In this document: positions 421 to 52,468 of the stretch, in pieces
Layout of the letters: the number at the start of each line of letters is the position of its first letter
Numbering within the stretch: the first letter of the stretch is position 1
NCBI GenBank assembly: GCA_026134085.1
Contig: JAOQIN010000004.1
Span: 26-64,025, forward strand
Reading direction: 5' to 3'
DNA from: Candidatus Methanoxibalbensis ujae
GTDB taxonomy: Archaea; Halobacteriota; Syntropharchaeia; Alkanophagales; Methanospirareceae
DNA: 64,000 nucleotides
Translations under genes and position numbers: made by a program
Notes under the pieces: generated by a model
Told to the model about the DNA's origin: nothing
Seen by the model: the letters and a program-made list of their open reading frames with translations, nothing else
Databases searched by the model: none

Positions 421-427
421 TCGCACA

Positions 428-6294: not shown

Positions 6295-6349
6295 GAGAAC
6301 ATGAAAACAGCCACAAGCGCGTGCTGTGTTCGTGACAGGTGAGGAAAAA

Positions 6350-7234: not shown

Positions 7235-7235
7235 C

Positions 7236-7300
7236 TTTTTCTCTTTTCTTTGTTTCTACTTTTATTTTTGTTTATAATTTTATCTTCACATCATTTTAAA
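7236..7300 (+). terminator. Oligo-T rich archaeal terminator region after hdrB
   Basis: Multiple T tracts (cttttt ctctttt ctttgttt ... ttatttttgttt) directly after the stop codon at 7232-7234. Confidence 0.5.
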
Positions 7301-7353
7301 ACATTATAAAATCCGCTCAGGCATCATAGAGCTATGGCAGAGGGACAGATGTG

Positions 7354-8957: not shown

Positions 8958-9135
8958 AATGGAACGGAAAATGCCGGCAGCCGATGGGGCGCCTGACACA
9001 GCCTCAGCTCGCTGCATGCTTGTTGCTTGTGACAGATGAGAGATGGGCAATACAGTCAGGCTGCTGACAGTGGCGTGGCGACAACAGCGAACGGCGACAA
9101 AAAAAGATGAGCGCTAAAAAATGAAAAATAAGCAA

Positions 9136-9879: not shown

Positions 9880-9898
9880 CCCTTCCAGTCATGGAATG

Positions 9899-9955
9899 CA
9901 GACAGCCTCACAGTCAGACAGCCTCACAGTCTCACAGTCTCACAGCCTCACAGCC
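9899..9955. repeat. Degenerate short tandem repeat array (cagcctcacagt / ctcacagt units)
   Basis: Read directly: gcagacagcctcacagtcagacagcctcacagtctcacagtctcacagcctcacagcc. It lies just upstream of the 9136-9879 gene. Confidence 0.8.
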
Positions 9956-10006
9956 GAACAAGCGGAGCGCGCTGATCGATGCGAGCGGTGCGATCAGAGC
10001 AAGCGA

Positions 10007-11134: not shown

Positions 11135-11228
11135 CCTGGCGCCCGGAGATGTAAAATTGCACGAGCGATCCTCCCACCCACGAAAAGGAACTAAAGTATG
11201 ATGAGGGCGAGATTCTTTGTTTCATTGA

Positions 11229-11483
11229 TCACCCCACTGAAATTCCTCCTCTGTCTTGATAACTCCTCAATAACTCCACAAGACCACAAGACACGCAAAT
11301 TCCCACTTCGCAAATCCGAAGAAGAATATGAGCGAACGTGCCAATTGAAGCTCCTGCCAGTGCCGCACTGAGAGAACCCGCCATCAGGCATGAGCCTGTA
11401 ATGGCAGCGATTATGATGGGAATATAGATGAGGACAATGATGAAAATAGCCCTCGGATCTCCCCGATTTTCCCACTTCGGCAT
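11229..11483 (-). CDS. Possible small membrane protein
   Basis: 84-aa ORF with two hydrophobic stretches (IFIIVLIYIPIIIAAITG, SLSAALAGASIG). No homology recognised. Confidence 0.25.
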   Translation of the reverse strand: MPKWENRGDPRAIFIIVLIYIPIIIAAITGSCLMAGSLSAALAGASIGTFAHILLRICEVGICVSCGLVELLRSYQDRGGISVG

Positions 11484-23943: not shown

Positions 23944-24804
23944 GTGATGTGGATGCGAGGAGAAATTGCGATATTCGTGTCTGTGATCGTTGCGGCGATG
24001 ATAGCGTCCTGCATACCTGCGGCGATTGGAGATGAAGCCCCAACGAATGTTTCTGTGAACAATGTCGCGCCGGATGTTGTTGATGTGTCTGTGTCGCCGA
24101 GTTATGTGGCGTTGAACCCATGCCCCGACAGCACACCAATTCTGGTTGAGGCTGAGGTCTCAGATGACAACGGTCCCGATGACATCAGCACTGTGCAGGT
24201 GACCGCGATAGAAAACAGCAGTGGAGGAGATGCGAGCGAATATCTTGAGGAGTCGCTGCCTGTTGACATGACATACAACGAGAGCACCGGAAAATACGAG
24301 GCAACTCTGCATTTGAAATGCACGACGCTTAACGACACATACACAGTTGAGGTCACCGCAGAGGATAAAGGCGGACTGGAAGATGTGGGCACTGGAAATT
24401 TCGCCGTTGGAATGACATGTGCGATTGAGATAGATTTCAACGCGATATCCTTCGGTGAGGTGAACCCGGGCGCTGCATCCTCAGTTGATGGAGACAGTGT
24501 CATGGAAACTGTGGGAACTGCCCCACCTGTCAAGCCGACCATAAAGAACTGCGGGAACGCGCCGATAAATGTGAGCCTGAAAATAGAGGACAGTGCTGGA
24601 AATCCGACAACACTCTTTGAGGGAAACACAACCGCTGTTGTGGACGATTCAGGACCTGAAACCCTCTCAAACACGCCGACAGAATTTGCAGTCAACCTCC
24701 TACCGGGCAATACAACAAATCTCGACATCTCACTCTATGTTCCCGTAGGCACCACATGGGGCTCATACACAGGAACACTCACAATAGAACCCGTGTGCAT
24801 GTGA
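23944..24804 (+). CDS. Secreted/surface protein paralog 1 (N-terminal hydrophobic anchor, sequon-rich)
   Basis: MRGEIAIFVSVIVAAMIA N-terminus. Shared modules with the next two genes (NVAPDV..., DDNGPDDISTV, YTVEVTAEDKGG, ISFGEVNPG, YTGTLTI). Confidence 0.75.
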   Translation: MMWMRGEIAIFVSVIVAAMIASCIPAAIGDEAPTNVSVNNVAPDVVDVSVSPSYVALNPCPDSTPILVEAEVSDDNGPDDISTVQVTAIENSSGGDASEYLEESLPVDMTYNESTGKYEATLHLKCTTLNDTYTVEVTAEDKGGLEDVGTGNFAVGMTCAIEIDFNAISFGEVNPGAASSVDGDSVMETVGTAPPVKPTIKNCGNAPINVSLKIEDSAGNPTTLFEGNTTAVVDDSGPETLSNTPTEFAVNLLPGNTTNLDISLYVPVGTTWGSYTGTLTIEPVCM

Positions 24805-24910
24805 TCTCTGCGTAAAACAAACTCCCTTTTTTCATTTTTTTTCACAAATTCCGCGAGACGCGAGAAAAAAAGAAAAATAAAAGGGGAAAAGGGAAAAAGG
24901 AGTGAGGAAA

Positions 24911-25966
24911 ATGCGCAAAAAAATGAATAAAATGAATAAAAAAATAGATTCGCGGAGGTATTTCGCTATCATGGCTGCCGTGCTCATCATAGCTGTGGTC
25001 ATTGCTCCAACATTGACTGCGATTGAAACTGAGATACCGGCAAATGCTTCTGTGCCGAACATAGCACCATCATTCATATCATTGAGCATACCGGATGACA
25101 GTGCTGATCCTGGATATCAGGTTATAAATCCGGATCCGGAGAGGAACAGGACAGTCAGACTGGAGGTGGTGCTGTGTGACATGAACGGACACGATGATAT
25201 ATCAAATGTGAATGCGAACATAACAGGTCCAAGTCATGTTGATCCATTTACATTGAAATTAAATCGCACTTTAAATGTGAGCACAGCAGTTTATGAGGGA
25301 TATTTCAACATGTCACATCACAAACAGGGAGAATACACAATAACAGTGAGAGCCTGCGATAAAGGAGGTATGTCCTCTCAGGCAGAATTGAATTTCACAT
25401 ACTCATATGGTGAGGTTGAGGTTGTGAGATATGATTTCTCCGATGGAGCAGGAGAGGACAAATGGGCATATCGGTATCAATGTGCTGAATTTCCGCCGAA
25501 CACGAATGATGTCCCTTCAATTGAGTTCACACCGAGGCAATATTCGTTCATAAAAAGCAGGAATTACATAATGTATGTGAGCGTGACGGACAAAACAGGA
25601 TACCACGCAGCACATCGCTTCGTGTTCAACATCAGACAACCTGAGAACATTCTCATGATGAACATATCATGGTGGGGATTCGGTTTCAAGTTCCTCGGTG
25701 AGGATGGTGCCACGCTGTTCATATGGAACTGCACCGCCGGAAGATACGAGCGTATTGATCGCGACAACAGCATATTCGCAATGCTTAAGGGGAGCATCAG
25801 CGATGACATATCAAACTACATTGATGAATGTGGAAACATCACGATACTCGTTGAGCAGAACAGCCCGCAAACAACAGCAACATCATTCTGGAGATCAATA
25901 CAACTGCACTCTTTCCTTGGCACGGATTACATCTGCCTGGATGTCCATTATCTGTCGCCTTGCTGA
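24911..25966 (+). CDS. Secreted/surface protein paralog 2
   Basis: Hydrophobic N-terminus YFAIMAAVLIIAVVIAP. Modules NIAPSF, DMNGHDDISNV, YTITVRACDKGG. The C-terminal half differs from paralogs 1 and 3. Confidence 0.7.
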   Translation: MRKKMNKMNKKIDSRRYFAIMAAVLIIAVVIAPTLTAIETEIPANASVPNIAPSFISLSIPDDSADPGYQVINPDPERNRTVRLEVVLCDMNGHDDISNVNANITGPSHVDPFTLKLNRTLNVSTAVYEGYFNMSHHKQGEYTITVRACDKGGMSSQAELNFTYSYGEVEVVRYDFSDGAGEDKWAYRYQCAEFPPNTNDVPSIEFTPRQYSFIKSRNYIMYVSVTDKTGYHAAHRFVFNIRQPENILMMNISWWGFGFKFLGEDGATLFIWNCTAGRYERIDRDNSIFAMLKGSISDDISNYIDECGNITILVEQNSPQTTATSFWRSIQLHSFLGTDYICLDVHYLSPC

Positions 25967-26085
25967 GCGCAGATGAGTCGCAGATGAGTGCGAAGGAGGT
26001 GTGATGTGTGGTGTGGAGATGAGGGTGATGATGAGGTGGTGATGAGGTGGTGATGAGGGAAATGATCACAGAAATGATCACAGGT

Positions 26086-27489
26086 ATGAGAATGAAAGGA
26101 GGTATAAGAGGTTGGGCTCTGCTGATGATATTGCTTGCATCACTGATGTCAACTGTGTCAACACTCGCACAGCCTTCCCCATTTTTCATAAATGGTTATG
26201 TTTTTCATGCAAACGGCACTGCGTGTGATGCGCCTTTGGTGAAGATAACAAACGAGAATACAGGAGCACACTGGACAGCGGAAACTTCGCAGAACATGTA
26301 TGGATGCATAATTGCAAACGGCATGGATGTGAATGTCTCCGAGACATTGCAGATATATGCGTGGAAAGATGTGCAATCAAAGATCATACATCACACAGTC
26401 ACAGAGAATGAAACGGAAGATGGCATATTATGCATGAATATCACTCTCCTGAATCCTCCCGAAACGCCTTTTGTCGTGCAAGGCGCAGTGTATTACGAGA
26501 CGGGTGAGCCCTGCATTAATCTGACAGGCGTTACCATAACAAATAAAAACACAGGAAACACATGGAATGCGGAAATACATGAGGGATTCAACCAATATAT
26601 GCTCGTTATAAGCGATAATGTGAGTGAGGGAGATGTTCTTGAGATAAACGCGACAGATGGCTCCTCCCGCAACAGCACAACACATGCAGTTTCTTCCGGG
26701 GAAATTGACAGCGGCATCGTATCTCACAATGTCACACTTCCAGCACTTAACATGGCGCCCTCTGTTGACAGCATACTCATAACACCGGATGATGATGTTG
26801 AGGAGGGCGTGCAGATAGACCCGCAGCCAGGAGAAAACAAAACAGTGAACATCTCAGCGGTTGTGAGAGATATGAACGGATATGATGACATATCCTCTGT
26901 GATTGCCACGATAACAGGACAGAGCAATGTCGCCGACAGCCCTGTAATTCTGCATTTCGTCTCAAATATTGATGGAAACACCGCAATATTCAATGGGTCT
27001 TTCAACATGAGCTTCTACTACGAGAGCGGTATATACACAGTGACTGTGAACGCAACTGACAAAAGCGGCGCAACAGGCACAAACACATCATCATTCAATT
27101 ATCGCGAGGCGATAGCACTGCGGATGGATGCTGTTTCCATAAGTTTTGGCAGTGTTGATCCGGGAGAATATTGTGAGGTCTCAGGTGATCATGATTTCGC
27201 CACCACGGATAAACCCACAATACAGAACATAGGGAACACCGTGATAAATGTGAAGATAAGCGGGACAAACCTCACATCAGAGGAGAATGCGGTGATAGAA
27301 AAGCGAAACATACGCGCACGCGTGGATGCTCTTTCATATAAAAACCTGAGCGAGGAAAGAGTGTTTGATGTGCAGATGCCCATCGGAAATGCGGTATTTG
27401 AGAACATTGACTTCAGCCTGAGCGTTGAACGCGGCACACCCCCAGGAAATTATGAGGGGAATGTGACAATAACTGCCGTCTCTGTATGA
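26086..27489 (+). CDS. Secreted/surface protein paralog 3 (longest; extra N-terminal repeats)
   Basis: Signal-like MRMKGGIRGWALLMILLASLMSTVSTLAQP. Modules NMAPSV, DMNGYDDISSV, YTVTVNATDKSG, ISFGSVDPG, YEGNVTI. More than 15 N-x-S/T sequons. Confidence 0.75.
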   Translation: MRMKGGIRGWALLMILLASLMSTVSTLAQPSPFFINGYVFHANGTACDAPLVKITNENTGAHWTAETSQNMYGCIIANGMDVNVSETLQIYAWKDVQSKIIHHTVTENETEDGILCMNITLLNPPETPFVVQGAVYYETGEPCINLTGVTITNKNTGNTWNAEIHEGFNQYMLVISDNVSEGDVLEINATDGSSRNSTTHAVSSGEIDSGIVSHNVTLPALNMAPSVDSILITPDDDVEEGVQIDPQPGENKTVNISAVVRDMNGYDDISSVIATITGQSNVADSPVILHFVSNIDGNTAIFNGSFNMSFYYESGIYTVTVNATDKSGATGTNTSSFNYREAIALRMDAVSISFGSVDPGEYCEVSGDHDFATTDKPTIQNIGNTVINVKISGTNLTSEENAVIEKRNIRARVDALSYKNLSEERVFDVQMPIGNAVFENIDFSLSVERGTPPGNYEGNVTITAVSV

Positions 27490-29782: not shown

Positions 29783-29969
29783 GGATTTTTCGTCTTTTGA
29801 AGGTTTAAATGGTGTTGGAAGCTGAGGCCAAGATATCCCAAAGCAGCAAAGCCCGCACACAGTTCGTAGTAACTCCCAGAACCTCTTAAGTCCGGCGAAC
29901 GAGTTGGGATAACGGAGGGTGATAAAATCCAAAAGTGGCGAATTGAATATGCCTGCAGGTTGGTGGAGT

Positions 29970-32936
29970 ATGAGGCTAATCGAGAAGGGCTTTAATCTGG
30001 TCGATGTGAACAAGCTTGCAGTCAAAGAAGCTGGATACAAGGCTGGCAAGGGCTCAGTAATTTTTCCTAAGATTCACAACATCCACACTTGGTTTGCGAG
30101 GAGACCCTGCGGAATTGCAAGAGTTTCGACGATATCAGCGGTTTTACCTGCGGATATAGATGAAAAAGAGTTCGAACAGATTGTCGGTTTGGATAAGGCG
30201 AAGAGAAGTGCTAAGGTAATTTACATGGCTGAGCCAAACTTAAAAATGCTTAAGAAATACGTAAATAAGAAATATGTAAATCCTTCAGAAATTACGGTCT
30301 TGGACCCGATGGCTGGTGGAGGCTCAATTCCTCTGGAATCCGCAAGGCTTGGATTTAGGACTATAGCCATGGATTACAATCCCGTCGCATACCTGATTCT
30401 GAAGGCAACTGTTGAATATCCAGCTAAGTTCGGCGAAGAACTCTTTAATTTGGCTTTGAAGGAAGCTAAGAAATTTATTAAGTTTGCAAGGGAGAAATTG
30501 GGTGAATTTTACACAGATGCCGAGAATTACATCTTTGCAAGAGGTATCAGATGTCCGAAGTGCAACGGCTTAATCCCAGTTGCTGGAGTCTTTCCAGAAA
30601 TAACCACTAAAACTTCATACAAGAAAAGATTTTTGAAGGTTGGATTTGATAAAGACAGTAAGAACTTTGGAGTTGAAACCACTAACGAGAAGCAGACTTG
30701 GTCTCTAAAGAAGTTCAGAAAAGGTCAAAACATATTCGCTCAATGTCCTTACTGCGAGCATGTTTTTAAGTTAAGAGGTCAAGGAGAAGACCATGCCTTT
30801 GCAAAGTGGTTTAAGGAGCATGCGAAGTTGATGAAAGCCGTTGTTGAAGACTTACAGCCCGTTGATGAAGAATTAGTGAAGAAATTACTCGAACTGCACA
30901 TTCCTCTCGTTAAGCAGGTTGGAAACGAGTTTGTTGCCGTAAAGGACGATGAAGAAGAGATTGAGAAGTTCGTTAAAGCCTTTAGAGAGCTTTCAAACAG
31001 AATATTCGAACTTCAGAGCTACATTCCAATGGATGAAATACCAGAGGAGAACGAATGGGCTTCTACCTTCAGAAATCTCGTTGGTGATGAAGTCACGCCA
31101 AAGTGGTATATGCTCTTCAATCCGAGACAGCTTTTGGTTTTAGCTGAATTGATTAGATACGTTGCAGAGAGAGTTAGAGAGCTTTACGAAGAAAAAGGAG
31201 AGTTTGGAATTGCTTCTATGCTTTACATTGCTTTTGCTTTGGATAAACTTGGGAATTTCAACACCATAGCTAATAAATGGCAAGGAACTCAGTTTAAAAC
31301 TGGAATGAGTGACACACTCCGAGGAGAACCAACTTTAAGCTTTAGAGCAGAATACTGTGAAGCAAAGAGAATTGAACAGGCATTGGAATGGACATTAGAG
31401 CCAGAACTTGCAGAAAACAGAAAGTTTACGAAAACTGCTGGCGGTATTCTCCCAGTTCTAAGATTCCTAACAGACCAGTTCAAAGAGAACAAGAACGAAA
31501 ATGTCAAAGTCATTTTGGGCGATGCAACTAAACTAAGCGAGATAATGGACGAAAAAGTCGATGTTATCAACGTCGATCCACCCTACTACGACCAAATCAC
31601 TTACTACAGTGATAAGAGCGAAATCTTTTGGATTATCTTAAGGAGAGCCTTATCACCAGCCCTATCAATACTGTTCAAAGATTCCAAACTCGATTGGGAT
31701 TACAACAGTCCGAAAGTTCCGAGAGAAAAGGAGATGGTTGCAAGAAAGAACGACGGAAGAAGATTCGAACAGCTGTTCAAACAGTTCGTAAAAGAATCAC
31801 ACAAAATTCTAAAAGACGATGGTTACCTAATAATCTGGTTCACTCATCCGAGGGCAGAAGCGTGGTATGCTGTTGGTGAATCTCTATACGATACTGGATT
31901 CATAGTTCCAAAGGTCTATCCAGTCTATACGGAAATGAGAACAAGATATCTAAAACAGGTTTTCGAGGCGGTTCAACAGGTAACCCTCGCAATCGTAGCC
32001 AAGAAAGGGGAGAGAAAACACATCGCAGTCCCAAGTGGAAACGTAAAAGCCTCATTACTCATGAATGAAGAGTTCATAAGTTCAATTCGTTCTGCCGTAG
32101 AAACTGCGAGAAAAACAATAGCAAATCTCGACATAACGACTGCTGACGCCTCGGCAATCGTCTTCAGCACCGCAATGGGTGTGATAACAAACTACTCCTT
32201 ACCGTTCAAAGCAAAATTCAAAGACCTATACGAGCCAGCGATAACCCTGTCTGTGAAAGAGTTTTTCACTCCTCTACTCGAAAAGGTCTTCAAGAAGGGT
32301 TACATAGCATTGGATGAAGAGAAAGCGAAGGTCCTACTTGAAAAGGTTGAGAAGAGACTTCTACTCGACCCTTCATCCCGTTCCTTCTTATCCCTATGGA
32401 CGATTTCACATGTCAGGATGGACGGGAGCCTCTACGAAGAACCTCTTAATCTGAGCTACGACTTTGCTCAGATGGTTTCAAAGCTCTGCGGATTCGACAT
32501 AAACGACCTCAAAAAGTTCGGATTAATTAGAAAGGTCAACAGCACTTACAAGCTAACACACCTTTCAGACTACGTAAACGGTAGAGTAAAGGCGGACATT
32601 AAAACGTTCCTGAAAACATCTGTAGGAAGAGCGATTTATTTGACATACCTCTCCGCATCAACTGGCGGAACCCCTGCTGTTAGAGCGAGAGAGATCGCCG
32701 AAAACGAACACGTAAGCAACTGCGCAGATGAGATAGAGTTTGATTCCTCATTAGCCTTAGTGTTACTATCAACCGCTCCAGACTCTGAATTCGAGGACGT
32801 ATCAAAGATAGACGTCAGGCAGATGAGAAAGATTATATCTGAAACTTTAACCCACTTTATATTAGGGGATGTCAAGATAGAGGTTAGAAGTGTTAAGAGC
32901 GGGATTAAAACGCTCGAAGGGTTCGGTGTCTTATGA
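29970..32936 (+). CDS. DUF1156/COG1743-type Zn-ribbon N6-adenine DNA methyltransferase (island 1)
   Basis: HNIHTWFARRP (DUF1156 hallmark), SAM motif VLDPMAGGGSIPLE, Zn ribbon CPKC...CPYC, catalytic NVDPPYYD. Clear paralog of the methylase at 58810. Start moved to ATG 29970 (MRLIEKG) after GGTGGAG. Confidence 0.85.
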   Translation: MRLIEKGFNLVDVNKLAVKEAGYKAGKGSVIFPKIHNIHTWFARRPCGIARVSTISAVLPADIDEKEFEQIVGLDKAKRSAKVIYMAEPNLKMLKKYVNKKYVNPSEITVLDPMAGGGSIPLESARLGFRTIAMDYNPVAYLILKATVEYPAKFGEELFNLALKEAKKFIKFAREKLGEFYTDAENYIFARGIRCPKCNGLIPVAGVFPEITTKTSYKKRFLKVGFDKDSKNFGVETTNEKQTWSLKKFRKGQNIFAQCPYCEHVFKLRGQGEDHAFAKWFKEHAKLMKAVVEDLQPVDEELVKKLLELHIPLVKQVGNEFVAVKDDEEEIEKFVKAFRELSNRIFELQSYIPMDEIPEENEWASTFRNLVGDEVTPKWYMLFNPRQLLVLAELIRYVAERVRELYEEKGEFGIASMLYIAFALDKLGNFNTIANKWQGTQFKTGMSDTLRGEPTLSFRAEYCEAKRIEQALEWTLEPELAENRKFTKTAGGILPVLRFLTDQFKENKNENVKVILGDATKLSEIMDEKVDVINVDPPYYDQITYYSDKSEIFWIILRRALSPALSILFKDSKLDWDYNSPKVPREKEMVARKNDGRRFEQLFKQFVKESHKILKDDGYLIIWFTHPRAEAWYAVGESLYDTGFIVPKVYPVYTEMRTRYLKQVFEAVQQVTLAIVAKKGERKHIAVPSGNVKASLLMNEEFISSIRSAVETARKTIANLDITTADASAIVFSTAMGVITNYSLPFKAKFKDLYEPAITLSVKEFFTPLLEKVFKKGYIALDEEKAKVLLEKVEKRLLLDPSSRSFLSLWTISHVRMDGSLYEEPLNLSYDFAQMVSKLCGFDINDLKKFGLIRKVNSTYKLTHLSDYVNGRVKADIKTFLKTSVGRAIYLTYLSASTGGTPAVRAREIAENEHVSNCADEIEFDSSLALVLLSTAPDSEFEDVSKIDVRQMRKIISETLTHFILGDVKIEVRSVKSGIKTLEGFGVL

Positions 32937-35900
32937 TTCCGATTGGAGATGTTTACAGGTTCAAAGCTGAAGTCGAAGAAGAGCTCACACCGAGCTTTCA
33001 TTCGGCAATCATGAGCAGTTTGGGGAAACCCTATCCCACAAGCTTCGGAGATGCAGACCACGTTTTCAGCATAACATGCTTCACCGAACCTCTTAAGATA
33101 TTTATCGAAGATGTGATCAAATCTTTAAATTTCGGAACAACGCCTTTCCCGCTCGTGAGGGGTTTTGGATTCGGAAAGACCCACTCTCTAATTGTTCTAT
33201 GGCATATATTTACAAATGCTATAACAGACGATCACCTGAGAAGATTGTTATCCGAAAATGAAATCTTAAAGCGGACCTTCGTCTTAGCATGTGATGTCAG
33301 CGAGAGAGCACCCCCACTAGAAACGTTTGCTGAAACTCTCTTCGCATCCAAAAGCATGAAGAAGGATTACGACTTACTAAGAGTTTTATCAGATTTAGAA
33401 GAAAAATATGATAAAAACGAACTTCTGAGCCCGACGAGATTTGCAGATTTCTTAACTGAATTTGTGAAGGAGTCTAAGAGGAAATTTCAAAAAACTCCTA
33501 AGTTCCTGGTTCTAATAGATGAACTCGGATACGGAACTATAAAGAGGATAGACGAATACGCCGACTCAAAATTTACCAAGGAGGAGTTGATAGAGGATAT
33601 TAGGAGATTGATAAGTTTCGTTACTACTATTGCTGAAGAGTTGAAAAGATTAGGTTCCTCAGTTGCAATAGTTTATGCATTTGCCGAACAAGACCTGAAC
33701 TCTCTTGATGCGAGAATAAAGATGCACTATTCAAATGAAAATGCGAGAGCAAAGCTTGAGGGATTGAAAGAGCTGATTAGAACAGATTTAATAGAAAGAC
33801 TTAAGAGGTATTCTGGTGGAATAGAAAGAGCACCGTTGCAGTTAAATCCCCTGCAAAACATAGAAATTGCGAAGTTTAGAGTTTTAAAAGCCATAGGAGA
33901 TGAGAGCAAAGCAAGAGATTCGACATCCTCTTATATCCAGAACCTTTTGGAAAACTTCAGAATTTTTGATGAAACCGACATCCACAACTATGTGGAGGCT
34001 GTTCGGCAGTTTTACCCTATTTCACCAGACTTGCTTAACCTCCTTAAAAAGGCTCATGATTCGACAGAATTTCCAAAAACAGAATACGTTAGAACTGTAA
34101 TATCTCTGTTAAAAGATGCTGTGAGGAATGCTTTACAGAACGAGCCTGATGCTCCTTTAATTGGCGTTGGATTTCTCAGCTTACAGCAATCTGCATTAAG
34201 CGACATACTTGACGATTATGCTCAAAGCGATTGGTTTACAATACTCAAAGATATTGAACTTACCATAAACTCCTCCAGGAATCAAAAGCTTGCAGAACTA
34301 ATTTCAAAGCTAATTCTATCGAAAGCTACTACCTCCAACATCCTTGCCCTGATAGAAGAAAGAGAGATAGAAAAATATGGCATGTCTCAAGAAGAAATTC
34401 AGGCATCCATAGTATCAACATTCAATAAAGATGAAGTTAGCTCAGCTTTAGAAGAATTTCCAGAAGTCTTGATGGATTTGAGGGTCAGAAGTGCAAGGAT
34501 AGTTGAAAGGATTGTAGAGGGTAAGAGATTGTTCATTCCTTCAGTAGTGAGGCACGTAATTGCACAAAAGGAATCTTACGTGATTGAGGAGAAGAAGAGA
34601 GCTCATGATAGTGGTATTCTCACATATATTCGGGAGTCAAGCGTGCAACCTCTTCTTAACAAACTTTCCAAGTCCGCAAATATACTAACAAAAGACCACA
34701 AAGAATTGAAAGAGCTAAGTAACGTTCACCTTAGTGAGCCAACGTGTTTCATCATTCCACCTTGGGATTTCGCCTTGTATAGAGAAATTGAGCAGAAAGG
34801 TCACGATAATGTGGTCAATGAAGCAGTAAATATTCTCAACAACAAATTTGAGAGAGGCGAAATCGTCAGAGCTCCTTATCTTATCGTTCTAATTCCGAAT
34901 CTTTCAAAAGTGAGCGATTTAGTAAACTCTCTAATAGAATACAATGCATCCATAAAATTCCTCGATTACTTGAAAAAGGAAGAATCCATCGTAAAGAACT
35001 ACATTGAGAAGGTGAAAACTGAGATTCTAACCAAAAGAACGAGCGAAAAAGTTGATGAAAGGAAATTGAGTAAACATATAGTTCAGAGTGTTCAGCAGCA
35101 GATCAGGGAAGCTAAAAATACCGCAATGGCTGAGGTTGTCAGATGTGCAAGAGATGTAATTGCAAACTTGCTTCGTTTATATGAAAAACCCATAGTATAT
35201 AATTTGACTCATAAAAATTTCGTATTTTCAACGAGATTCTTGGAAAGAAGGGAGGAGACTATAAAGAGAATTGTGCCTGAGATAAAGACAAAGGATGTTG
35301 ATAAATACTCAGATATGATCAAAAAGTTAGTTGAAGACATTTTAAACCTTGTAGGTTTTGAAGAGAAACATACCGTCGTGAAAGAAGCTTTATTCAACCG
35401 CATAAAGAAGGAGCTTGAAGAGTATGAAATGGAAAGTATAAGCATTGATGAATTACTCGAAAATTTAATTCTCGGAACGTACGGAATCCTACCTAAGACA
35501 GAAGAAATTGCGAGAAAATCTATTGGGGGTCTTAATGGAAAAATCATAGATTATTCAGACAAGATTGTGAAGATAATAGTCAATAAAAAGAGCTTGTTAT
35601 TTAAATATGAAAAGAAAGAACCTAAAATGAAGATAGAGTCGATTCAGGTTTCTCCAAAGAAGCTCACCTACAATCCGAAAGAGAACGTCAGGTTAAATAT
35701 CAGCATTGTGAATGAGGGGGCAAGAGGAGACTGCATTTTGAAGATTGAAAGTTGTGACGATGGGAATGTCATAGTTCAAAGAGAACTCAAAGAAATTGAA
35801 ACTAAGGAAGAAAGAGTCTTACCATTGGAGTTAGTTTTGCCTGAAGTCGGAGGAGAGCATCGCTATAGGGTTTCAGTAATGCATAATCCCATAGAAGTTG

Positions 35901-36265
35901 ATGATGAGAGAGAGCATATGTTCACAGTGGAACCCGAACCATATCCACTGCCTCCAGAGTTCGTGAAAGAGATAACCGCTGATATAACGGAAACTGATAA
36001 GGAAAGCATAATCGACTTTGTTTCGTCGAATCAGAATGCTTTTGAGGAATGCGGGATTTACATGGAGTCGGACGATTTTGACATATCTATAGATGTTAAA
36101 AGCCCGAAGCGAGGCAACTTAGATGTTTTAATGAGGTTCGTTCAACCGCTCGCCAGAAGATGCAATACTGTGCCAAAGATTCATCTTAAGACCAAACACG
36201 GCATTTTGAAGAAAGATGATGTAAAATTTGAAGCGGATATCAAGCTCTATGATCAGAAAAGTTGA
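32933..36265 (+). CDS. Divergent DUF499/BrxC-like P-loop ATPase with a C-terminal beta-sandwich (CARDB-like) region (island 1)
   Basis: 1110 aa. GFGFGKTHSLIVLWH and KFLVLIDELGY align with PFGGGKTHTLIALYH and PVLILMDEILEY of the DUF499 protein at 61497. ATGA overlap with the methylase gene. Confidence 0.7.
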   Translation: MIPIGDVYRFKAEVEEELTPSFHSAIMSSLGKPYPTSFGDADHVFSITCFTEPLKIFIEDVIKSLNFGTTPFPLVRGFGFGKTHSLIVLWHIFTNAITDDHLRRLLSENEILKRTFVLACDVSERAPPLETFAETLFASKSMKKDYDLLRVLSDLEEKYDKNELLSPTRFADFLTEFVKESKRKFQKTPKFLVLIDELGYGTIKRIDEYADSKFTKEELIEDIRRLISFVTTIAEELKRLGSSVAIVYAFAEQDLNSLDARIKMHYSNENARAKLEGLKELIRTDLIERLKRYSGGIERAPLQLNPLQNIEIAKFRVLKAIGDESKARDSTSSYIQNLLENFRIFDETDIHNYVEAVRQFYPISPDLLNLLKKAHDSTEFPKTEYVRTVISLLKDAVRNALQNEPDAPLIGVGFLSLQQSALSDILDDYAQSDWFTILKDIELTINSSRNQKLAELISKLILSKATTSNILALIEEREIEKYGMSQEEIQASIVSTFNKDEVSSALEEFPEVLMDLRVRSARIVERIVEGKRLFIPSVVRHVIAQKESYVIEEKKRAHDSGILTYIRESSVQPLLNKLSKSANILTKDHKELKELSNVHLSEPTCFIIPPWDFALYREIEQKGHDNVVNEAVNILNNKFERGEIVRAPYLIVLIPNLSKVSDLVNSLIEYNASIKFLDYLKKEESIVKNYIEKVKTEILTKRTSEKVDERKLSKHIVQSVQQQIREAKNTAMAEVVRCARDVIANLLRLYEKPIVYNLTHKNFVFSTRFLERREETIKRIVPEIKTKDVDKYSDMIKKLVEDILNLVGFEEKHTVVKEALFNRIKKELEEYEMESISIDELLENLILGTYGILPKTEEIARKSIGGLNGKIIDYSDKIVKIIVNKKSLLFKYEKKEPKMKIESIQVSPKKLTYNPKENVRLNISIVNEGARGDCILKIESCDDGNVIVQRELKEIETKEERVLPLELVLPEVGGEHRYRVSVMHNPIEVDDEREHMFTVEPEPYPLPPEFVKEITADITETDKESIIDFVSSNQNAFEECGIYMESDDFDISIDVKSPKRGNLDVLMRFVQPLARRCNTVPKIHLKTKHGILKKDDVKFEADIKLYDQKS

Positions 36266-37004
36266 AAGACTTGTGGAAATTGTAACTGAGCTTGAGATGG
36301 ATTTGAGGAGCTTGCATGCCATATACTTAATCACATTCCTCAGAACGGGGTGCGAGAATGATAATTTACGTGGAATTGCAGAATCTTTCCTCTCATACAA
36401 AGATAGAATGATCGTATTTGATCCCTTTTTCGAAGGAGTTAGAATTGCTTCAGAAATACTTGATCAATTAGAGTTGAGTGTTGAACGCTCAGATATCAGA
36501 AATGTCATAAATGAGCTGAAAAAGAGGGTAAAAAATGTGGGCGTGACCTTTGTCATAGATTGCTTCTCTCCGATTGAGTTGTTAACATATCTCACAAAAC
36601 TCAGATCTGATGGCTTTCAGTCAAAACTACTTGAGATATATTTCACGAACATAGGTGGAGTTACCAGATACCTCACAGCTCAAGCCAGTGGCACAATAAG
36701 AGGTTTTTCGGAATATCTTGCAGAGTTTTTAAATGCAAAAGTTCACGATGAATGCTCCTATTTCGATAGACTCGTTCACACATCTATTTTGATCGATGAC
36801 TTCCTACGTAGCATTCCCCACGGGAGCATATATTCAAGAATTGTAAAATACCTCAATTCTTACAAGTCCATTTTGATAACTTCAGACCATGGCTACGATG
36901 TCGTGAGTTCTGATGGTTTGCTCTACGTTACTCATCCCTCCCCTCCTGAGGGTAGTATACTTAAATTCAGCAACATTGCGATGTACTTAGTCGGTTGGAG
37001 GTGA
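36249..37004 (+). CDS. Small PglZ/alkaline-phosphatase-superfamily-like protein (island 1)
   Basis: Motif order VTFVIDCFSP ... NIGGVTRYLTAQASG ... FDRLVH ... ILITSDHGYD mirrors the metal-ligand Asp, Ser/Thr nucleophile and DHG motifs of PglZ-type phosphatases. Overlaps the upstream gene by 17 nt. An alternative start is at 36228. Confidence 0.45.
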   Translation: MIRKVERLVEIVTELEMDLRSLHAIYLITFLRTGCENDNLRGIAESFLSYKDRMIVFDPFFEGVRIASEILDQLELSVERSDIRNVINELKKRVKNVGVTFVIDCFSPIELLTYLTKLRSDGFQSKLLEIYFTNIGGVTRYLTAQASGTIRGFSEYLAEFLNAKVHDECSYFDRLVHTSILIDDFLRSIPHGSIYSRIVKYLNSYKSILITSDHGYDVVSSDGLLYVTHPSPPEGSILKFSNIAMYLVGWR

Positions 37005-37456
37005 ACAAATTGTTCGATTACAACATGATATATAAAGAGAAGAAGAAACCAGAACTGAAGATAACGGTCGGAAAGGGAGAAGAGTTGGTAATCAAAGTTT
37101 CTGGAAAGACTGCAAGACACGTTTTCGAGAAAATAACAGATAATTCAAAGGTATGGGATTACTTGGAACCTGCAAACATAACATCCAAAGAAAAGAAGTA
37201 TAGTATGAGAGCAGATGTAGCACCGATCATAATAAGCTATGTCCTCTTAAACAGGAGGAGCCCAAAACCTGAGAAGTGGGATTGGTATCTGGATGAAGTT
37301 CTTGATGGGAGATTATCGATTGCTGGAAAAAGTATAAGCAGTTTGGTTGAGATGTTCTTCACACTCTCAAACACATTTGGCTACAAGGAATCATCAGATG
37401 TCCTCACAAGTATGTTCAAAACATTTGCCGACAAGGTGAGGAAGTATCTGCACTAA
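36995..37456 (+). CDS. Hypothetical protein, last gene of island-1 cassette
   Basis: 153-aa ORF overlapping the stop of the previous gene. Possible starts: TTG 36995, GTG 37001, TTG 37010, ATG 37025. No motif recognised. Confidence 0.5.
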   Translation: MEVNKLFDYNMIYKEKKKPELKITVGKGEELVIKVSGKTARHVFEKITDNSKVWDYLEPANITSKEKKYSMRADVAPIIISYVLLNRRSPKPEKWDWYLDEVLDGRLSIAGKSISSLVEMFFTLSNTFGYKESSDVLTSMFKTFADKVRKYLH

Positions 37457-38281: not shown

Positions 38282-38920
38282 GTGAGGAGAAAAGTGATCG
38301 GCGGCGTTAAAACGCTGCGCAGGGAATTTCGTATTGCTGAACTCGTGAATTACGGCACCGAACAGAAGCCGTCATACACTGTAAGTGTTGAGATTTGGAT
38401 TCATGTTGGCGAGAGTCCTGACAGCATGCATCGCATATTCGTGGAAACGGGGCTTATATCCAGAGACACCGTCCCGTTCGAAGTTGTGAACTTCAGGGGA
38501 AGTGTGTCAGGGGATGAGCCTTTTTACGCCGCGGAGATATTATATGAGGGGGCACTTATTGAATACAGCGTCCATCCACGCCATGCAGGCGGTATAAGAG
38601 AATTGCGGTATGAGCCAGTTGTGACTCCTGAGGACATGAGGCTGATACATCCGGCTGAATTTCACAGGCATGGTATTGAGGTGCTCTCGTGGGAACTCCA
38701 TAACTACCGCCCGCATCTCATGCTGTTCATCTCATCAAAAAAATATGAGCACTTTGACTTGTCTGTCAGGCGAGAGGAGGAGAGCACCTCAATAAACATG
38801 AAAATCGGAGAATCAGATCTGCGCAGGAAGACAGCACCATGCAGGTGGCTCCTTCAGCGCATCTCTGTGTTTGACATAGATGTTGAGGAAGAACTGATGA
38901 AATTGCTGTGCGATGAATAG
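38282..38920 (+). CDS. Hypothetical protein
   Basis: 212-aa ORF (GTG start) with host-like composition. No motif recognised. Confidence 0.45.
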   Translation: MRRKVIGGVKTLRREFRIAELVNYGTEQKPSYTVSVEIWIHVGESPDSMHRIFVETGLISRDTVPFEVVNFRGSVSGDEPFYAAEILYEGALIEYSVHPRHAGGIRELRYEPVVTPEDMRLIHPAEFHRHGIEVLSWELHNYRPHLMLFISSKKYEHFDLSVRREEESTSINMKIGESDLRRKTAPCRWLLQRISVFDIDVEEELMKLLCDE

Positions 38921-46937: not shown

Positions 46938-48426
<1,489 letters not shown>

Positions 48427-48480
48427 AATTTCATTTTAAATCTCCTGCCTGTGCCGTAAGACCGTCAGGCAGACCTGCCA

Positions 48481-48552
48481 GGGCTCGTAGATCAGTGGTA
48501 GATCGTCGCCTTTGCGAGGCGAAGGCCCTGGGTTCGAATCCCAGCGAGTCCA
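48481..48552 (+). tRNA. tRNA-Ala (anticodon TGC) in the 16S-23S spacer
   Basis: Acceptor GGGCTCG/CGAGTCC with the G3:U70 identity pair, anticodon loop TTTGCGA, T arm CTGGG-TTCGAAT-CCCAG. Confidence 0.95.
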
Positions 48553-49164
48553 TATGAGATGCACCCGGCAAGATGCTTGTCGGGGAAGGACCGATGACTG
48601 TTTGTCAGATGAGGTCGTCACAGGCACTTCGTGGTCCCGGCATCTATTGGGAGAGTGGCTGGGCTGCTCCGCTGGCGGCTATGCCACCTGGTGGATGGCT
48701 CGGCTCAGGGCGCCGAAGAAGGGCGTGCCAAGCTGCGAAAAGCCTCGGGTAGGCGCAGGGAGCCTTTGAACCGAGGATTCCCGAATGGGAATTCCCGCCA
48801 TCAGGCGCTCCCGTAAGCTTCGGCTGAGGGAGAGGGAACGCCCCGAATTGAAACATCTTAGTAGGGGCAGGAAGAGAAATCAAATGAGATGCCGTGAGTA
48901 ACGGCGAGTGAAAACGGCAGAGCTCAAACTGAACCCTCCTCCGAAAGGAGTGAGGGGATGTGGAGTTGGAGGCTCCCTCCGTCAGCACCCGAGGGGTGAA
49001 GCTGAAGTCCGCTGGAATGCGGCGCCGGAGAGGGTGAGAGCCCCGTAGGCATAAGCCCTGAGGGTGTGGAGGGATGACCTGAGTACCGCGGGTTGGATTT
49101 CTCGCGGGAATCTGGGGGCTACCAACCTCCAAAGCTAAATACGTCCTGAGACCGATAGCGCACT

Positions 49165-49197
<33 letters not shown>

Positions 49198-50664
49198 TGA
49201 GGGAGGTGAAAAGAGCCTGAAACCAGGTGGTGATGGTGTGATGCGGCATGGAAGCGATGATGACGCCGAAGGAAAGCCGTAAGGCGAGTACGAGGTGTCC
49301 GGAGCAGTGTCGCATCGTACGTTTTGAAAAACGGGCCAGGGAGTGTGTCCCGATGGCGAGGCTAACCTGAATGGGGAAGCCGCAGGGAAACCGAAATGCC
49401 CGCACCCGAGAGGGGAGGGGCGGCGTACGAACTGCGCGGAGTCATCGGGGCACGACCCGAAGCCGGGTGATCTAGGCGGAGGCAGGGTGAAGCCTCCCGA
49501 AAGGGAGGTGGAGGCCCGCACCGATGCTGACTTGCAAATCGCTCGGATGACCTCCGTCTAGGGGTGAAAGGCCAATCAAACCCGGCGATAGCTGGTTCCC
49601 CCCGAAACATGCCACAGCATGACCCGGTCTGAGGTGGACGGCGCTGTAGAGTTACTGATAGGAGGTCACCGGGAGGAAACTCCTGGCCCTTCTGTCAAAC
49701 TCCGAAGGTGCCGTCGCCTTAGATGACCGGAAGTCGGGGCGTCGGGGTAAGCTCGGCGTCCGAAAGGGGAACAACCCAGACCGGGGTTAAGGCCCCTAAG
49801 TGTTGGCTAAGTGTCGAAATCCGAAGGGAGTCCCGAGCCGGAGACAGCTGGGAGGTGAGCTTAGAAGCAGCTATCCTCTAAGGAGTGCGTAACAGCTCAC
49901 CAGCCGAGGCTCGGGGCACCGAAAATGGACGGGGCTAAAGCCAACCGCCGATACCCCGGGACACCGAAAGGTGATTCCGTAGGGGGGCGCCCTGCGAGGG
50001 CGGAAGCATCTCCGTGAGGAGGTGTGGACCTTGCAGGGACGAGAATCCTGGCGATAGTAGCAGCATAGCCGGGTGAGAATCCCGGTCGCCGAAGGGGCCA
50101 GGTTTCCTCGGCAATGTTCGTCAGCCGAGGGTTAGCCGGTCCTAAGGGCGTCCTCAACCAGAGACGCCCGAAGGGGAAGCAGGTCAATATTCCTGCGCCG
50201 TCCAGCCTGAAAGGGTGAAAGCCCGCCTGACGCTTCCGGGTATGCCGAGCGGCGCCGTCGCGCCGTCCAAGCCCAGAAGTCCCCGGAGAGCCGTAATGGC
50301 GAGAAGGGGATGAATGGGTGATGGCGAAAGTCGGTAGATCCCGGGAGACCGTGAAAAGGGTGGCTGGACGACCGTACCGAGAACCGACACAGGTGCCCCT
50401 GGGTGAGCAGCCCAAGGCGTGTCGGGGCACTCCGGCTGAGGGAAATCGGCAAACTCGCCCCGTAACCTCGGGAGAAGGGGTGCCTGCTCTTGCGCAAAGA
50501 GCAGGTCGCAGTGACAAGGGGAGGCCGACTGTTTAATAAAAACATAGGTGGCTGCAAGCCCGAAAGGGTGAGTACAGCTGCCGACTCCTGCCCAGTGCCG
50601 GTCCCTGAAAGCCCCGTTCAAGGGGACGAAGGGCCGGTAAACGGCGGGGGTAACTCTGACCCTC

Positions 50665-51396
50665 AAGGAGGGGGTCGTTAAATCCGGCTGTATGCTGGGA
50701 AGTTTGAGCGCTCGGCTCCTGAGTAAGGGAAAATGCCGGGTGCGATGAGAACAATCAGCAGGAAACCGAGGAGGTGCGTGCTGCTTGCTCTACGAGTTCA
50801 GGGATTTGATTGACCCGAGAATGCTTCCAGGGCGGAGGAAGGAACTCATGTATTACCTCGTGGGCTTCACAGACGCAGAGGGTTGCTTCAGTGTTTCGCT
50901 GAAAAAACAGGAAGGCACGAGGTTTGGATGGGTTCTTGACCCGGTGTTCCATGTGACGCAGCACAAAAGCAATCGCATCGTGCTTGAAATCTTCCGCCGA
51001 ACACTCATGTGCGGCAGAATCATTGAGAAGCATGGACAGCCAGACACGCTGGTTTACATCGTTGACAACCGCAGACAGCTCGCAGAGAAAGTGATTCCGT
51101 TTTTCCGAAGGCACAGACTTATCCTGAAGCACAGGGATTTTGAGCGTTTCGCAGAGATCGTGGAGGCATTAGAGGAGAAGAAGCATGCGACGGCTGAAGG
51201 CTTCAGGGAACTCGTGCAGAAAGCGTTTGAGATGAACATGGCGGGTAAGCAGCGGAGACACACGCTTGAGGAAATCCTTAGTGATATTGCCTCTGTGGCC
51301 TCCTCGGGATCCTCAGAGGCCATACGCCGGACGCCCCGAGAAGGCGTGAGTAACGCCGAGAAGGGGCGAAGATATGGTCCACCCGGGAAGGGTGCT
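50665..51396 (+). mobile_element. Archaeal rRNA intron carrying a homing-endonuclease ORF
   Basis: The conserved exon sequence GACCCTC (ends 50664) resumes as TTAAGGTAGCG at ~51396/51397. The intervening 732 nt has no rRNA similarity and contains a LAGLIDADG ORF. Boundaries are accurate to within a few nt. Confidence 0.8.
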
Positions 51397-51399
51397 TAA
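50785..51399 (+). CDS. Single-motif LAGLIDADG homing endonuclease (intron-encoded)
   Basis: YLVGFTDAEGCFSV is a LAGLIDADG motif. Only one motif is present, so a homodimeric type is inferred. The stop codon overlaps the predicted 3' splice junction. The start may be the internal MLPGRRKEL. Confidence 0.8.
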   Translation: MLYEFRDLIDPRMLPGRRKELMYYLVGFTDAEGCFSVSLKKQEGTRFGWVLDPVFHVTQHKSNRIVLEIFRRTLMCGRIIEKHGQPDTLVYIVDNRRQLAEKVIPFFRRHRLILKHRDFERFAEIVEALEEKKHATAEGFRELVQKAFEMNMAGKQRRHTLEEILSDIASVASSGSSEAIRRTPREGVSNAEKGRRYGPPGKGA

Positions 51400-52396
51400 G
51401 GTAGCGTAATACCTAGCCGCTTAATTGGCGGCTTGCACGAAAGGAGGAACGAGCCTCCCGCTGTCCCCAGCCGGAACCCGGCGAAATCCACATCCTGGGG
51501 AACGGTCCAGGGACCCCCGAGGGGAAGCGAAGACCCCGTGGAGCTTTACTGCAGCCTGCCGCTGGACCATGGCTTCGGATGTAGAGCGTAGGTGGGAGGC
51601 AGTGAGACGCTCTCGCCAGGGGGCGTGGAGCCGCCAATGGAACACCACCCTTCCGAGGTTGTGGTCCTTACCCGAAAGGGGACAACGGCAGGTGGGCAGT
51701 TTGGGTGGGGCGCCACGCCCTCGAAAAAATATCGAGGGCGCCCAAAGGTCGGCTCAGCCGGGTCAGAACTCCGGCGTAGAGTGCAAGGGCAAAAGCCGGC
51801 CTGACGTGACCCCGCATACCAAAGGGTCACGAGCCGAAAGGCGGGCCTAGCGAACCTTTGAGGGTCATTGGTAGGCCCCAAAGACGTCAGAAAAGCTACC
51901 CCGGGGATAACTGAGTTGTCTCCGGCGAGAGTCCACATCGACCCGGAGGCTTGCTACTTCGATGTCGGCTCTTTCCATCCTGGGCGTGCAGCAGCGCCCA
52001 AGGGTAAGACTGTTCGTCTGTTAAAGGAGATCGTGAGCTGGGTTTAGAACGTCGCGAGACAGTTCGGTTGCTATCTATCGGGGGTGTTGGAGGTCTGAGG
52101 GGAAGCTCCCCCTAGTACGAGAGGAACGGGGGAGCGGCGCCTCTGGTGTACCGGTTGTCCGACAGGGCAACGCCGGGCAGCTACGCGCCACTGGATAAGA
52201 GCTGAAAGCATCTAAGCTCGAAGCCACCCCCGAAAAGAGACCTCCAGGGCACCGCTAGAACAGCGGTTTGATAGAGCCGGGGTGTAAGTGCCGAGGCGAA
52301 AGCCGAGGCATTCAGCCCGCGGCTACTAACGCCCGTAGCCAGCTCTTAAAGCCCTGCCACTCCTCCAGATGAAGCCGGAACCGCGAAGTGCCTCAT

Positions 52397-52468
52397 GCCA
52401 AGGTGGCGGAGAGGCTACGCGGCTGACTGCAGATCAGCTATACCCCGGTTCAAATCCGGGCCTTGGCT
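52397..52468 (+). tRNA. tRNA-Cys (anticodon GCA) distal to the 23S rRNA
   Basis: Acceptor GCCAAGG/CCTTGGC, anticodon stem GCTGA/TCAGC with loop CTGCAGA, T arm CCCGG-TTCAAAT-CCGGG. Confidence 0.9.

Follow-up and report, generated by a model that had tools for sequence, protein, structure and literature searches.

A miniature stand-alone PglZ-like protein encoded in a conserved archaeal methyltransferase-ATPase operon

A 64,000-nt stretch of contig JAOQIN010000004.1 from a metagenome-assembled genome (MAG) of Candidatus Methanoxibalbensis ujae, an ANME-1c methanotrophic archaeon, was analysed and is referred to here as the window. It includes a gene of 251 codons, designated mini-PglZ, that probably encodes a miniaturised, stand-alone protein belonging to the alkaline-phosphatase superfamily and, within it, to the PglZ branch. 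The gene is part of a four-gene operon that would be a methylation-based defence system related to the bacteriophage exclusion (BREX) systems. The active-site pattern, weak sequence signals and the predicted structure are three independent lines of evidence that converge on PglZ. That a stand-alone PglZ may be attached to DUF499-type systems was published as a general idea in 2026 (PMC12839542), and what is new here is a markedly reduced PglZ lineage that is unannotated and occurs in helicase-less and BrxL-containing archaeal operons.

Gene call and protein family

The mini-PglZ open reading frame (ORF) runs to its stop codon with no interruption, and the reverse strand over the same interval is riddled with stops. 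The ATG at 36249 was taken as the correct start because all homologs align from its Met, which is the start in each of them. A TTG at 36228 is a possible alternative start that would add seven codons. An identical public sequence, MCW7077889.1, from a MAG of the same organism, is annotated 'hypothetical protein'. The original prediction, made from the sequence letters alone, had named four motifs, VTFVIDCFSP, NIGGVTRYLTAQASG, FDRLVH and ILITSDHGYD. All are found in the translation and, as judged by alignment, they are the conserved core of the mini-PglZ family.

Among 5.8 billion proteins, 14 homologs were identified by a word-indexed search, and an exhaustive hidden Markov model search of 1.84 billion representative proteins gave a family of 44 clusters at 50% identity. 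Family members that are apparently complete have 226–312 aa. The small number of shorter sequences seem to be fragments, and among the 1.84 billion representatives neither a long nor a fused member was found. Hence, the small size is the family norm and not the result of truncation. The PglZ of type 1 BREX from E. fergusonii (pEFER PglZ), at 885 aa, is 3.5 times the length of mini-PglZ. No bridge to the long PglZ proteins emerged from the exhaustive profile search of the representatives, which returned family members only. A word-indexed search with the profile of an alignment of 39 family members (A2) found only 19 proteins, with no PglZ-annotated borderline matches.

Active-site residues

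A larger alignment (A3) includes 55 family sequences that are 16–95% identical to the window protein, with a mean column identity of 30%. Exactly 11 columns are invariant in all 55 sequences, namely D104, E110, N134, T139, D173, H177, D213, H214, G215, Y216 and H229. Seven of them match, in order, the metal ligands and the Thr nucleophile of PglZ and PorX, giving the PglZ pattern D, T, D-x3-H/D, D-H, H. The residues singled out from the letters alone are all invariant, and H229 (in the motif YVTH, the seventh expected ligand), E110 and N134 are added to them. Of the SDHG signature, D213, H214 and G215 are invariant, as is the following Y216. The proposed element of a nucleophilic Thr followed by xxxxG holds in part, in that T139 is invariant but the second Thr, T143, and the Gly of 'xxxxG' are not conserved across the wider family.

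The residues of mini-PglZ were related to those of PorX (PMC9757075) and pEFER PglZ by order, spacing and secondary-structure position rather than by residue-level superposition. The strand-end Asp D104 corresponds to D239 in PorX and D503 in pEFER PglZ, and the nucleophile T139 to T272 and T538, respectively. D173 and H177 of the DxxxH motif are the counterparts of D361 and H365 in PorX and of D617 and D621 of a DxxxD motif in pEFER PglZ. The DH pair D213-H214 corresponds to D415-H416 and D661-H662, and the last His, H229, to H500 and H741. Thus, mini-PglZ and PorX have His as the second ligand of the DxxxH motif, where pEFER PglZ has Asp, and the spacing within this motif is the same as in PorX.

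The Asp and Thr residues are separated by 35 residues in mini-PglZ and pEFER PglZ and by 33 in PorX. The later intervals are much shorter in mini-PglZ, with 34 residues between the nucleophile and DxxxH, as compared with 89 in PorX and 79 in pEFER PglZ, and 15 residues between DH and the last His, as compared with 84 and 79, respectively; the latter interval is the region of the cap subdomain. The PglZ domain of pEFER itself reached no match to the PorX sequence by phmmer.

PorX is a zinc-dependent phosphodiesterase that acts on oligonucleotides (PMC9757075), and BREX PglZ acts as a metal-dependent nuclease, which nicks and linearises DNA and cleaves oligonucleotides (PMC12205998). Metal-dependent activity is known for the PglZ proteins of E. 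fergusonii and Salmonella and for PorX (PMC9757075, PMC12205998). In pEFER PglZ, replacement T538A abolishes and H741A weakens the nuclease (PMC12205998).

Predicted structure

The AlphaFold model computed from the 55-sequence alignment had a predicted local distance difference test (pLDDT) score of 94.1 and a predicted TM-score (pTM) of 0.92. In this model, D104 ends the strand 99–103 and T139 starts the helix 139–143. The strand 165–169 is followed by the helix 171–176, with D173 inside the helix and H177 just after it. D213-H214 follow the strand 207–211, and H229 follows a hairpin at 217–228. This predicted topology fits the alkaline-phosphatase superfamily. Residues 1–95 are helical in the model, as is the linker in front of the PglZ core of PorX and BREX PglZ, and residues ~97–251 would constitute a minimal catalytic core of the alkaline-phosphatase fold.

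In a Foldseek search of the PDB with the same model, ranks 1 to 13 were all PorX, a PglZ-domain protein of solved structure (E 2.2e-4 to 4.7e-3, probability 0.69–0.99). Ranks 14 to 50 were mostly other enzymes of the alkaline-phosphatase superfamily, together with a BREX PglZ chain from Acinetobacter (9zn5_B). The matches below PorX included TAB5 and shrimp alkaline phosphatases, MCR-1, phosphonoacetate hydrolase, ENPP6, iPGM and PH0037. AlphaFold and Foldseek together give an alkaline-phosphatase fold with PglZ structures as its nearest neighbours.

A model built from 15 close homologs only reached a pLDDT of 68, and Foldseek related it to generic α/β folds (eIF2B, AAA+) at E ≥ 0.07. Judged from the two models, this null result is a false negative that was cured by the deeper alignment. 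The fold result is strongly dependent on alignment depth, and a negative search on the shallow alignment would wrongly have led to rejection of the PglZ finding. The generic matches of this first model, and the lack of any curated profile match at threshold, are what would be expected if the motif pattern and the fold match were coincidental and the protein an unrelated Rossmann-like α/β protein. Such a coincidence is very improbable, given that the first model was of low confidence and the confident one matches PglZ specifically, that the seven invariant residues are right in chemical type, order and secondary-structure position, and that the genomic context independently predicts PglZ.

Profile evidence

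Scans of the window protein against Pfam, PADLOC and NCBIfam gave no meaningful match, and none to Pfam PglZ (PF08665) was seen up to E = 10. Searches of PDB sequences with the single sequence and with a profile gave chance matches only (Vav, a reductase and a sugar-binding protein). When the 39 members of A2 were scanned at E ≤ 10, PglZ was the Pfam family matched by most of them (four, all below threshold), followed by the alkaline-phosphatase-type families Sulfatase, Metalloenzyme and Phosphodiest with two members each. Six of ten divergent family members match Pfam PglZ with E-values of 0.003–0.24. The Pfam PglZ matches always lie at positions ~122–174 of the 179 in the profile.

Comparison of A3 with an alignment of 108 BREX-1 PglZ domains by hhalign gave a score of 39.9 (P 5e-5, probability 67%). 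The reversed template scored 15.4, and 150 column-shuffled templates had a mean score of 14.7 (standard deviation 2.6) and a maximum of 24.4. The match spans a helix-strand-DHG element. The sequence support for PglZ, although weaker, is consistent.

Some of these data would also suit another branch of the superfamily, be it a 'Metalloenzyme' of the iPGM/phosphopentomutase kind, a sulfatase or a hydrolase resembling phosphoethanolamine transferases. In that case the protein would act on a small phospho-metabolite or on another protein (such as a partner to be dephosphorylated) and not on nucleic acid. In iPGM and phosphopentomutase the spacing between DH and the last His is short, nearer to the 15 residues of mini-PglZ than to the values for PorX or pEFER PglZ. 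Some family members show weak Pfam matches to Metalloenzyme (0.013), Sulfatase (0.0015) and Phosphodiest (0.14), and Foldseek lists PH0037, iPGM, MCR-1 and alkaline phosphatases at E 0.04–0.8. This assignment is nevertheless unlikely, since all of the 13 best structural matches are PorX, their E-values being better by a factor of 100 to 1000 than those of any non-PglZ family, and PglZ is the most recurrent Pfam family. Moreover, mini-PglZ is strictly linked to genes for a methyltransferase, a BrxC-like ATPase and often BrxL, which is a context of PglZ and not of metabolism.

Several points weigh against the PglZ assignment. No curated library names mini-PglZ a PglZ, the best family member reaching 18.0 bits (E 0.003) against the PF08665 gathering threshold of 25 bits. 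The hhalign match covers ~30–40 columns in the C-terminal half only, its probability is 59–67%, and the N-terminal motifs are out of register; D104 and T139 could not be brought into register with BREX-1 PglZ even in global mode or at very low maximum-accuracy (MAC) thresholds. The structural match depends on one model, as the shallow-alignment model matched nothing, and the Foldseek TM-scores are modest (0.38–0.40 query-normalised, root-mean-square deviation ~11 Å). The cap subdomain, a listed synapomorphy of PglZ, appears from the model to be absent or shrunk to a hairpin: no three-stranded sheet is found between DH and the last His, and the predicted hairpin has two strands (217–221 and 224–228). 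Finally, catalytic mutants of BREX PglZ retain much of the defence, so that even in model systems it is uncertain whether PglZ acts solely as a nucleolytic effector.

The last point is shared by the idea that mini-PglZ is a PglZ homolog with an essentially structural role in assembly of the methyltransferase and ATPase, with restriction brought about by an unlinked nuclease, by BrxL or a helicase in sister loci, or by replication blockage. In the BREX system of E. fergusonii, catalytic PglZ mutants keep methylation along with much of the defence (PMC12205998), and deletion of pglZ abolishes both, according to work cited there. Complex formation is likewise suggested by the helical domain at the N terminus of mini-PglZ and by its obligatory small partner. 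The seven catalytic residues, as well as E110, N134, G215 and Y216, are invariant down to 16% identity, which points to selection on catalysis and not on scaffolding alone, and a solely structural role is quite improbable. The identity of mini-PglZ as a PglZ/alkaline-phosphatase-like protein, as originally predicted, is supported by the structural match to PorX and the seven ligands invariant in 55 homologs; neither a want of any match to the superfamily nor a loss of the ligands among homologs was found.

Operon in the window

Mini-PglZ is the third of four co-directional genes (Table 1), which overlap by 4 nt (end of the methyltransferase gene and start of the ATPase gene), 17 nt (ATPase stop and mini-PglZ ATG) and 10 nt (mini-PglZ stop and start of the partner gene) and are translationally coupled. 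The operon lies on a low-GC island with a GC content of 0.34–0.45, as compared with roughly 0.45–0.55 in the flanking housekeeping genes. Repeats flanking the island were limited to short, probably chance matches. No helicase gene was found between the flanking housekeeping genes, neither BrxA nor BrxB was detected in the operon, and BrxL was not found in the window.

Table 1. Coordinates of features in the window and in related loci.
Feature	Sequence	Coordinates	Strand	Basis or remark
N6-adenine DNA methyltransferase (predicted), DUF1156/HmaB/PglXI type, 1005 aa	window	29919..32936	+	PADLOC, NCBIfam, Pfam; presumed self-marking
Large P-loop ATPase (predicted), distant DUF499/HmaC/BrxC/SspC relative, 1110 aa	window	32933..36265	+	motifs, PADLOC; presumed DNA-scanning scaffold
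Mini-PglZ, stand-alone PglZ-like metallo-phosphodiesterase (predicted), 251 aa	window	36249..37004	+	ORF, family, conservation, AlphaFold, Foldseek
Codon span of seven predicted active-site residues	window	36558..36935	+	invariant in 55 sequences; computed from ATG 36249
Codon of D104	window	36558-36560	+	
Codon of T139	window	36663-36665	+	
Codon of D173	window	36765-36767	+	
Codon of H177	window	36777-36779	+	
Codons of D213-H214	window	36885-36890	+	
Codon of H229	window	36933-36935	+	
Small fast-evolving partner protein, 153 aa	window	36995..37456	+	always directly downstream of mini-PglZ gene
212-aa ORF	window	38282-38920	+	right edge of low-GC island
Three consecutive ORFs, 286, 354 and 480 aa	window	23944-27489	+	N-terminal hydrophobic segments
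Archaeal rRNA operon	window	46938-52468		16S, tRNA-Ala, 23S, tRNA-Cys
204-aa ORF in 23S match	window	50785-51399	+	LAGLIDADG-like motif LVGFTDAEGCF
AAA_15/SMC_N ATPase (OLD/ABC-like)	L001 (Archaeoglobus contig)	1-702		upstream of cassette
GmrSD + SocA_Panacea-domain protein	L004	1-2106		upstream of cassette
Locus with Snf2-type helicase	L009 (Ca. Bathyarchaeia MAG JAWBPB010000001.1)	389-11238		family member MEM2126617.1
BrxL homolog	L005	900-2315		
BrxL homolog	L011	8574-9986		
BrxL homolog	L012	6723-8132		
BrxL homolog	L013	8298-9713		
BrxL homolog	L014	4461-5876		
BrxL homolog	L015	8298-9713		
BrxL homolog	L016	8305-9717		
BrxL homolog	L017	8282-9727		

The product of the first gene matched the PADLOC profiles MTase_II (1.8e-41), HmaB (1.9e-29), DUF1156_MTase (3.9e-17) and PglXI (3.3e-9). 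NCBIfam DUF1156_antiphage was matched at 6e-28 over residues 125–759, far under its equivalog cut-off. Among the Pfam families, UPF0020 and MethyltransfD12 were above their cut-offs, N6_N4_Mtase was just under, and DUF1156 reached E 0.029 only. The DUF1156 (PglXI-like) N6-methyltransferase that belongs to Type-3 BR systems is represented by this gene, and the cassettes of all complete related loci begin with a methyltransferase gene.

In the ATPase, the Walker A (GFGFGKTH) and Walker B (D196-E197) motifs are invariant in ten orthologs. Six of these matched PADLOC HmaC (best 1.2e-12), one matched SspC at 1.7e-7, and one BrxC at 0.004. Pfam DUF499 was matched neither by the window protein nor by any of the ten orthologs, and the ATPase profile found no match among PDB sequences. 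The earlier description of this neighbour as a DUF499 ATPase is to be qualified, since Pfam DUF499 gave no match at any listed E-value and the window protein matches only the PADLOC model of HmaC, an ATPase of the DUF499 type.

A partner protein of ~155 aa is encoded downstream of the PglZ-like gene in 18 of the 18 related loci described below. No column is invariant among 11 orthologs, and the 153-aa window protein showed no similarity to Pfam, PDB, BrxA or BrxB. In the gene order it stands where Type-3 BR systems have their iSTAND/BrxB-like component.

The 212-aa ORF at the right edge of the island has no Pfam, PADLOC or NCBIfam match. It probably lies outside the system, because it is not conserved beside the cassette in other loci.

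Related archaeal loci

The 18 related loci were compared by ORF-level phmmer, the search for loci having used a 12-sequence subset of A3. Nine of ten genome matches were archaeal. The tenth, a 61-residue tblastn match in a deltaproteobacterial locus (L019) that lies in no ORF of at least 100 aa, was rejected as spurious. The lineages with mini-PglZ loci include ANME-1, Archaeoglobus, Sulfolobales, Thermoproteales and Bathyarchaeia, and the order of genes in the cassette is kept even where mini-PglZ is only ~21% identical.

Three arrangements were distinguished. Variant A, with the order methyltransferase, ATPase, mini-PglZ and small protein, is found in the window, in Archaeoglobus JdFR-37, in a Thermoproteaceae MAG and in metagenomic contigs (PglZ 21% identical). 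In variant B, a 470-aa BrxL homolog is added directly upstream of mini-PglZ, and this form occurs in MAGs of Sulfolobales, Thermoprotei, Desulfurococcaceae, Terraquivivens and Bathyarchaeia. In variant C, seen in one Bathyarchaeia locus, a Snf2 helicase precedes the cassette.

The BrxL homolog (~470 aa) lies between the ATPase and mini-PglZ in eight loci, which therefore have a five-gene operon of methyltransferase, ATPase, BrxL, PglZ and small protein. It includes Pfam BrxL_N and BrxL_ATPase and has no Lon/HKD C-terminal domain. The combination of a DUF1156-type methyltransferase with BrxL may be unclassified, because BrxL is called specific to BREX types 1 and 4 (PMC12839542).

The helicase of L009 has 1107 aa and a NOV_C domain and is encoded upstream of the methyltransferase. 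The ATPase of this locus appears to be split into ORFs of 822 and 189 aa. A helicase was found in L009 only, and none was found in L001, L004, L007 or L018. Defence-type genes lie upstream of the cassette in L001 and L004 (Table 1), which is consistent with placement in defence islands.

Relationship to known systems

In the Type-3 BR (DUF499-centred, BREX-related) systems (Rakesh & Krishnan, NAR 2026, PMC12839542), a DUF499 ATPase and a DUF1156 methyltransferase are combined with a Snf2 helicase that has no nuclease, an active PglZ encoded on its own and an inactive STAND protein. Systems with the stand-alone PglZ hallmark are known from 569 taxa, 134 of them archaeal (PMC12839542). Hence, with this publication of January 2026, a stand-alone PglZ beside a DUF499 ATPase can no longer be regarded as unusual, as the original prediction had it. 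The mini-PglZ operon resembles Type-3 BR in having a single-domain PglZ as a gene of its own, with an N6-methyltransferase of DUF1156 type and a DUF499-like ATPase encoded beside it and a small fast-evolving protein (iSTAND in PMC12839542) encoded next. Type-3 BR systems are likewise frequent in archaea, with all PglZ metal ligands retained (PMC12839542). L009 with its Snf2 helicase presents the full published architecture. This match of variant C implies that the family is at least a close cousin of the published stand-alone PglZ set. The family is possibly included in that set; a text search of the supplement of PMC12839542 found no match to it, the alignments there apparently being images.

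The differences from Type-3 BR are fourfold. The BrxHII-like Swi2/Snf2 helicase without nuclease is absent from the window and from four other variant A loci. Eight mini-PglZ loci carry the short BrxL, a component otherwise stated to be restricted as given above. The three-stranded cap is retained in Type-3 BR (PMC12839542), whereas mini-PglZ has the 15-residue β-hairpin in the model. Lastly, the window ATPase is without a match to Pfam DUF499.

Of the canonical BREX components (types 1–6 of Goldfarb 2015), the window has PglZ-like and BrxC-like genes, and the locus fits none of the six types. BREX type 1 PglZ (BrxZ; pEFER, PDB 9NV3 and 9ZN5) shares with mini-PglZ the seven-residue pattern and the Asp-to-Thr spacing, and its partners are also a methyltransferase and a BrxC-type ATPase, with BrxL found in the sister loci of mini-PglZ. 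In contrast to BREX PglZ, mini-PglZ is without the N-terminal inactive Swi2/Snf2-like domain, the helix-turn-helix units, the cap subdomain and the C-terminal β-sandwich. The operons differ further in that the window methyltransferase is DUF1156/PglXI-like and not PglX, and no recognisable BrxA or BrxB is encoded.

PorX (PDB 7PVA, 8THP and 8P6F) is the best structural match, with the same ligands and a helical linker before the catalytic domain. However, PorX carries a receiver domain and serves as a two-component response regulator in the regulation of type IX secretion and not in defence.

The MANTIS, Gao_RL and Hma systems (Type-1 and Type-2 BR) combine a DUF499-type ATPase with a DUF1156-type methyltransferase, and PADLOC HmaB and HmaC match the window proteins. 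Their effector is a helicase-nuclease (MtsD/HmaA) that the window lacks, and their small protein (DUF3780/DUF3870) has no detected similarity to the 153-aa partner.

Proposed mechanism

A mechanism can be proposed by analogy to BREX, PorX and MANTIS, and the enzymatic activity, substrate, partner contacts and defence role of mini-PglZ given here are those that the analogy would predict. Mini-PglZ would consist of a helical domain of ~95 residues followed by a core of ~155 residues with a full binuclear-metal site, in which D104, T139, D213 and H214 would form metal site one and D173, H177 and H229 metal site two. With two divalent metals bound, T139 would be the nucleophile that attacks a phosphodiester, as in PorX and BREX PglZ. 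Relative to the latter proteins, the cap subdomain between DH and the last His and an insertion between the nucleophile and DxxxH would have been lost.

The DUF1156 methyltransferase of MANTIS is loaded by the DUF499 ATPase together with a small co-regulator, for hemimethylation of asymmetric sites, and in BREX, dimers of BrxC bind PglZ-BrxB. MANTIS loading is a plausible template for the window ATPase and the 153-aa protein. By this analogy, the ATPase, perhaps with the small protein, would load the DUF1156-type methyltransferase on asymmetric sites, and host DNA would thereby be marked. The same complex would recognise unmodified DNA of an invader. Mini-PglZ would be the effector and, docked via its helical N-terminal domain, may then hydrolyse phosphodiester bonds in a metal-dependent manner and so nick or cut DNA or degrade oligonucleotides.

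A further, rather doubtful possibility is that the four-gene operon is by itself a complete immune system of the BREX type, smaller than any other known, in which a PglZ core of ~155 residues suffices for the catalysis of restriction and the helicase of L009 and the short BrxL of eight crenarchaeal and bathyarchaeal loci serve as optional, interchangeable motors. The five-gene version would then be an unclassified BR/BREX hybrid. If so, immunity would be achieved without a helicase, BrxL or the sensor domains of BREX PglZ.

Significance

In work on how BREX restricts, the large multidomain PglZ (~850–890 aa) is hard to dissect. Mini-PglZ, as a natural, thermophile-derived combination of a helical adaptor and a ~155-residue core with all ligands intact, would define the minimal catalytic unit, and this core should crystallise and be assayed easily. 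As a candidate minimal model, the four-gene operon could show how methylation driven by an ATPase is coupled to restriction mediated by PglZ; it is useful in this way and is not a new kind of system. Surveys of archaeal defence systems probably miss mini-PglZ loci, because the proteins are annotated 'hypothetical' and are invisible to Pfam, NCBIfam and PADLOC.

Other features of the window

The window also contains an rRNA operon (Table 1). It is archaeal, in agreement with the archaeal origin of the window. The 23S match spans 3683 nt, as compared with 2987 positions in the model, and holds the 204-aa ORF with a LAGLIDADG-like motif. The long match and this ORF point to an intron-encoded homing endonuclease in the 23S gene. 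The products of the three consecutive ORFs in the left part of the window share motifs such as 'DMNGxDDIS' and 'TVxAxDKxG' and look like paralogous secreted or surface proteins.

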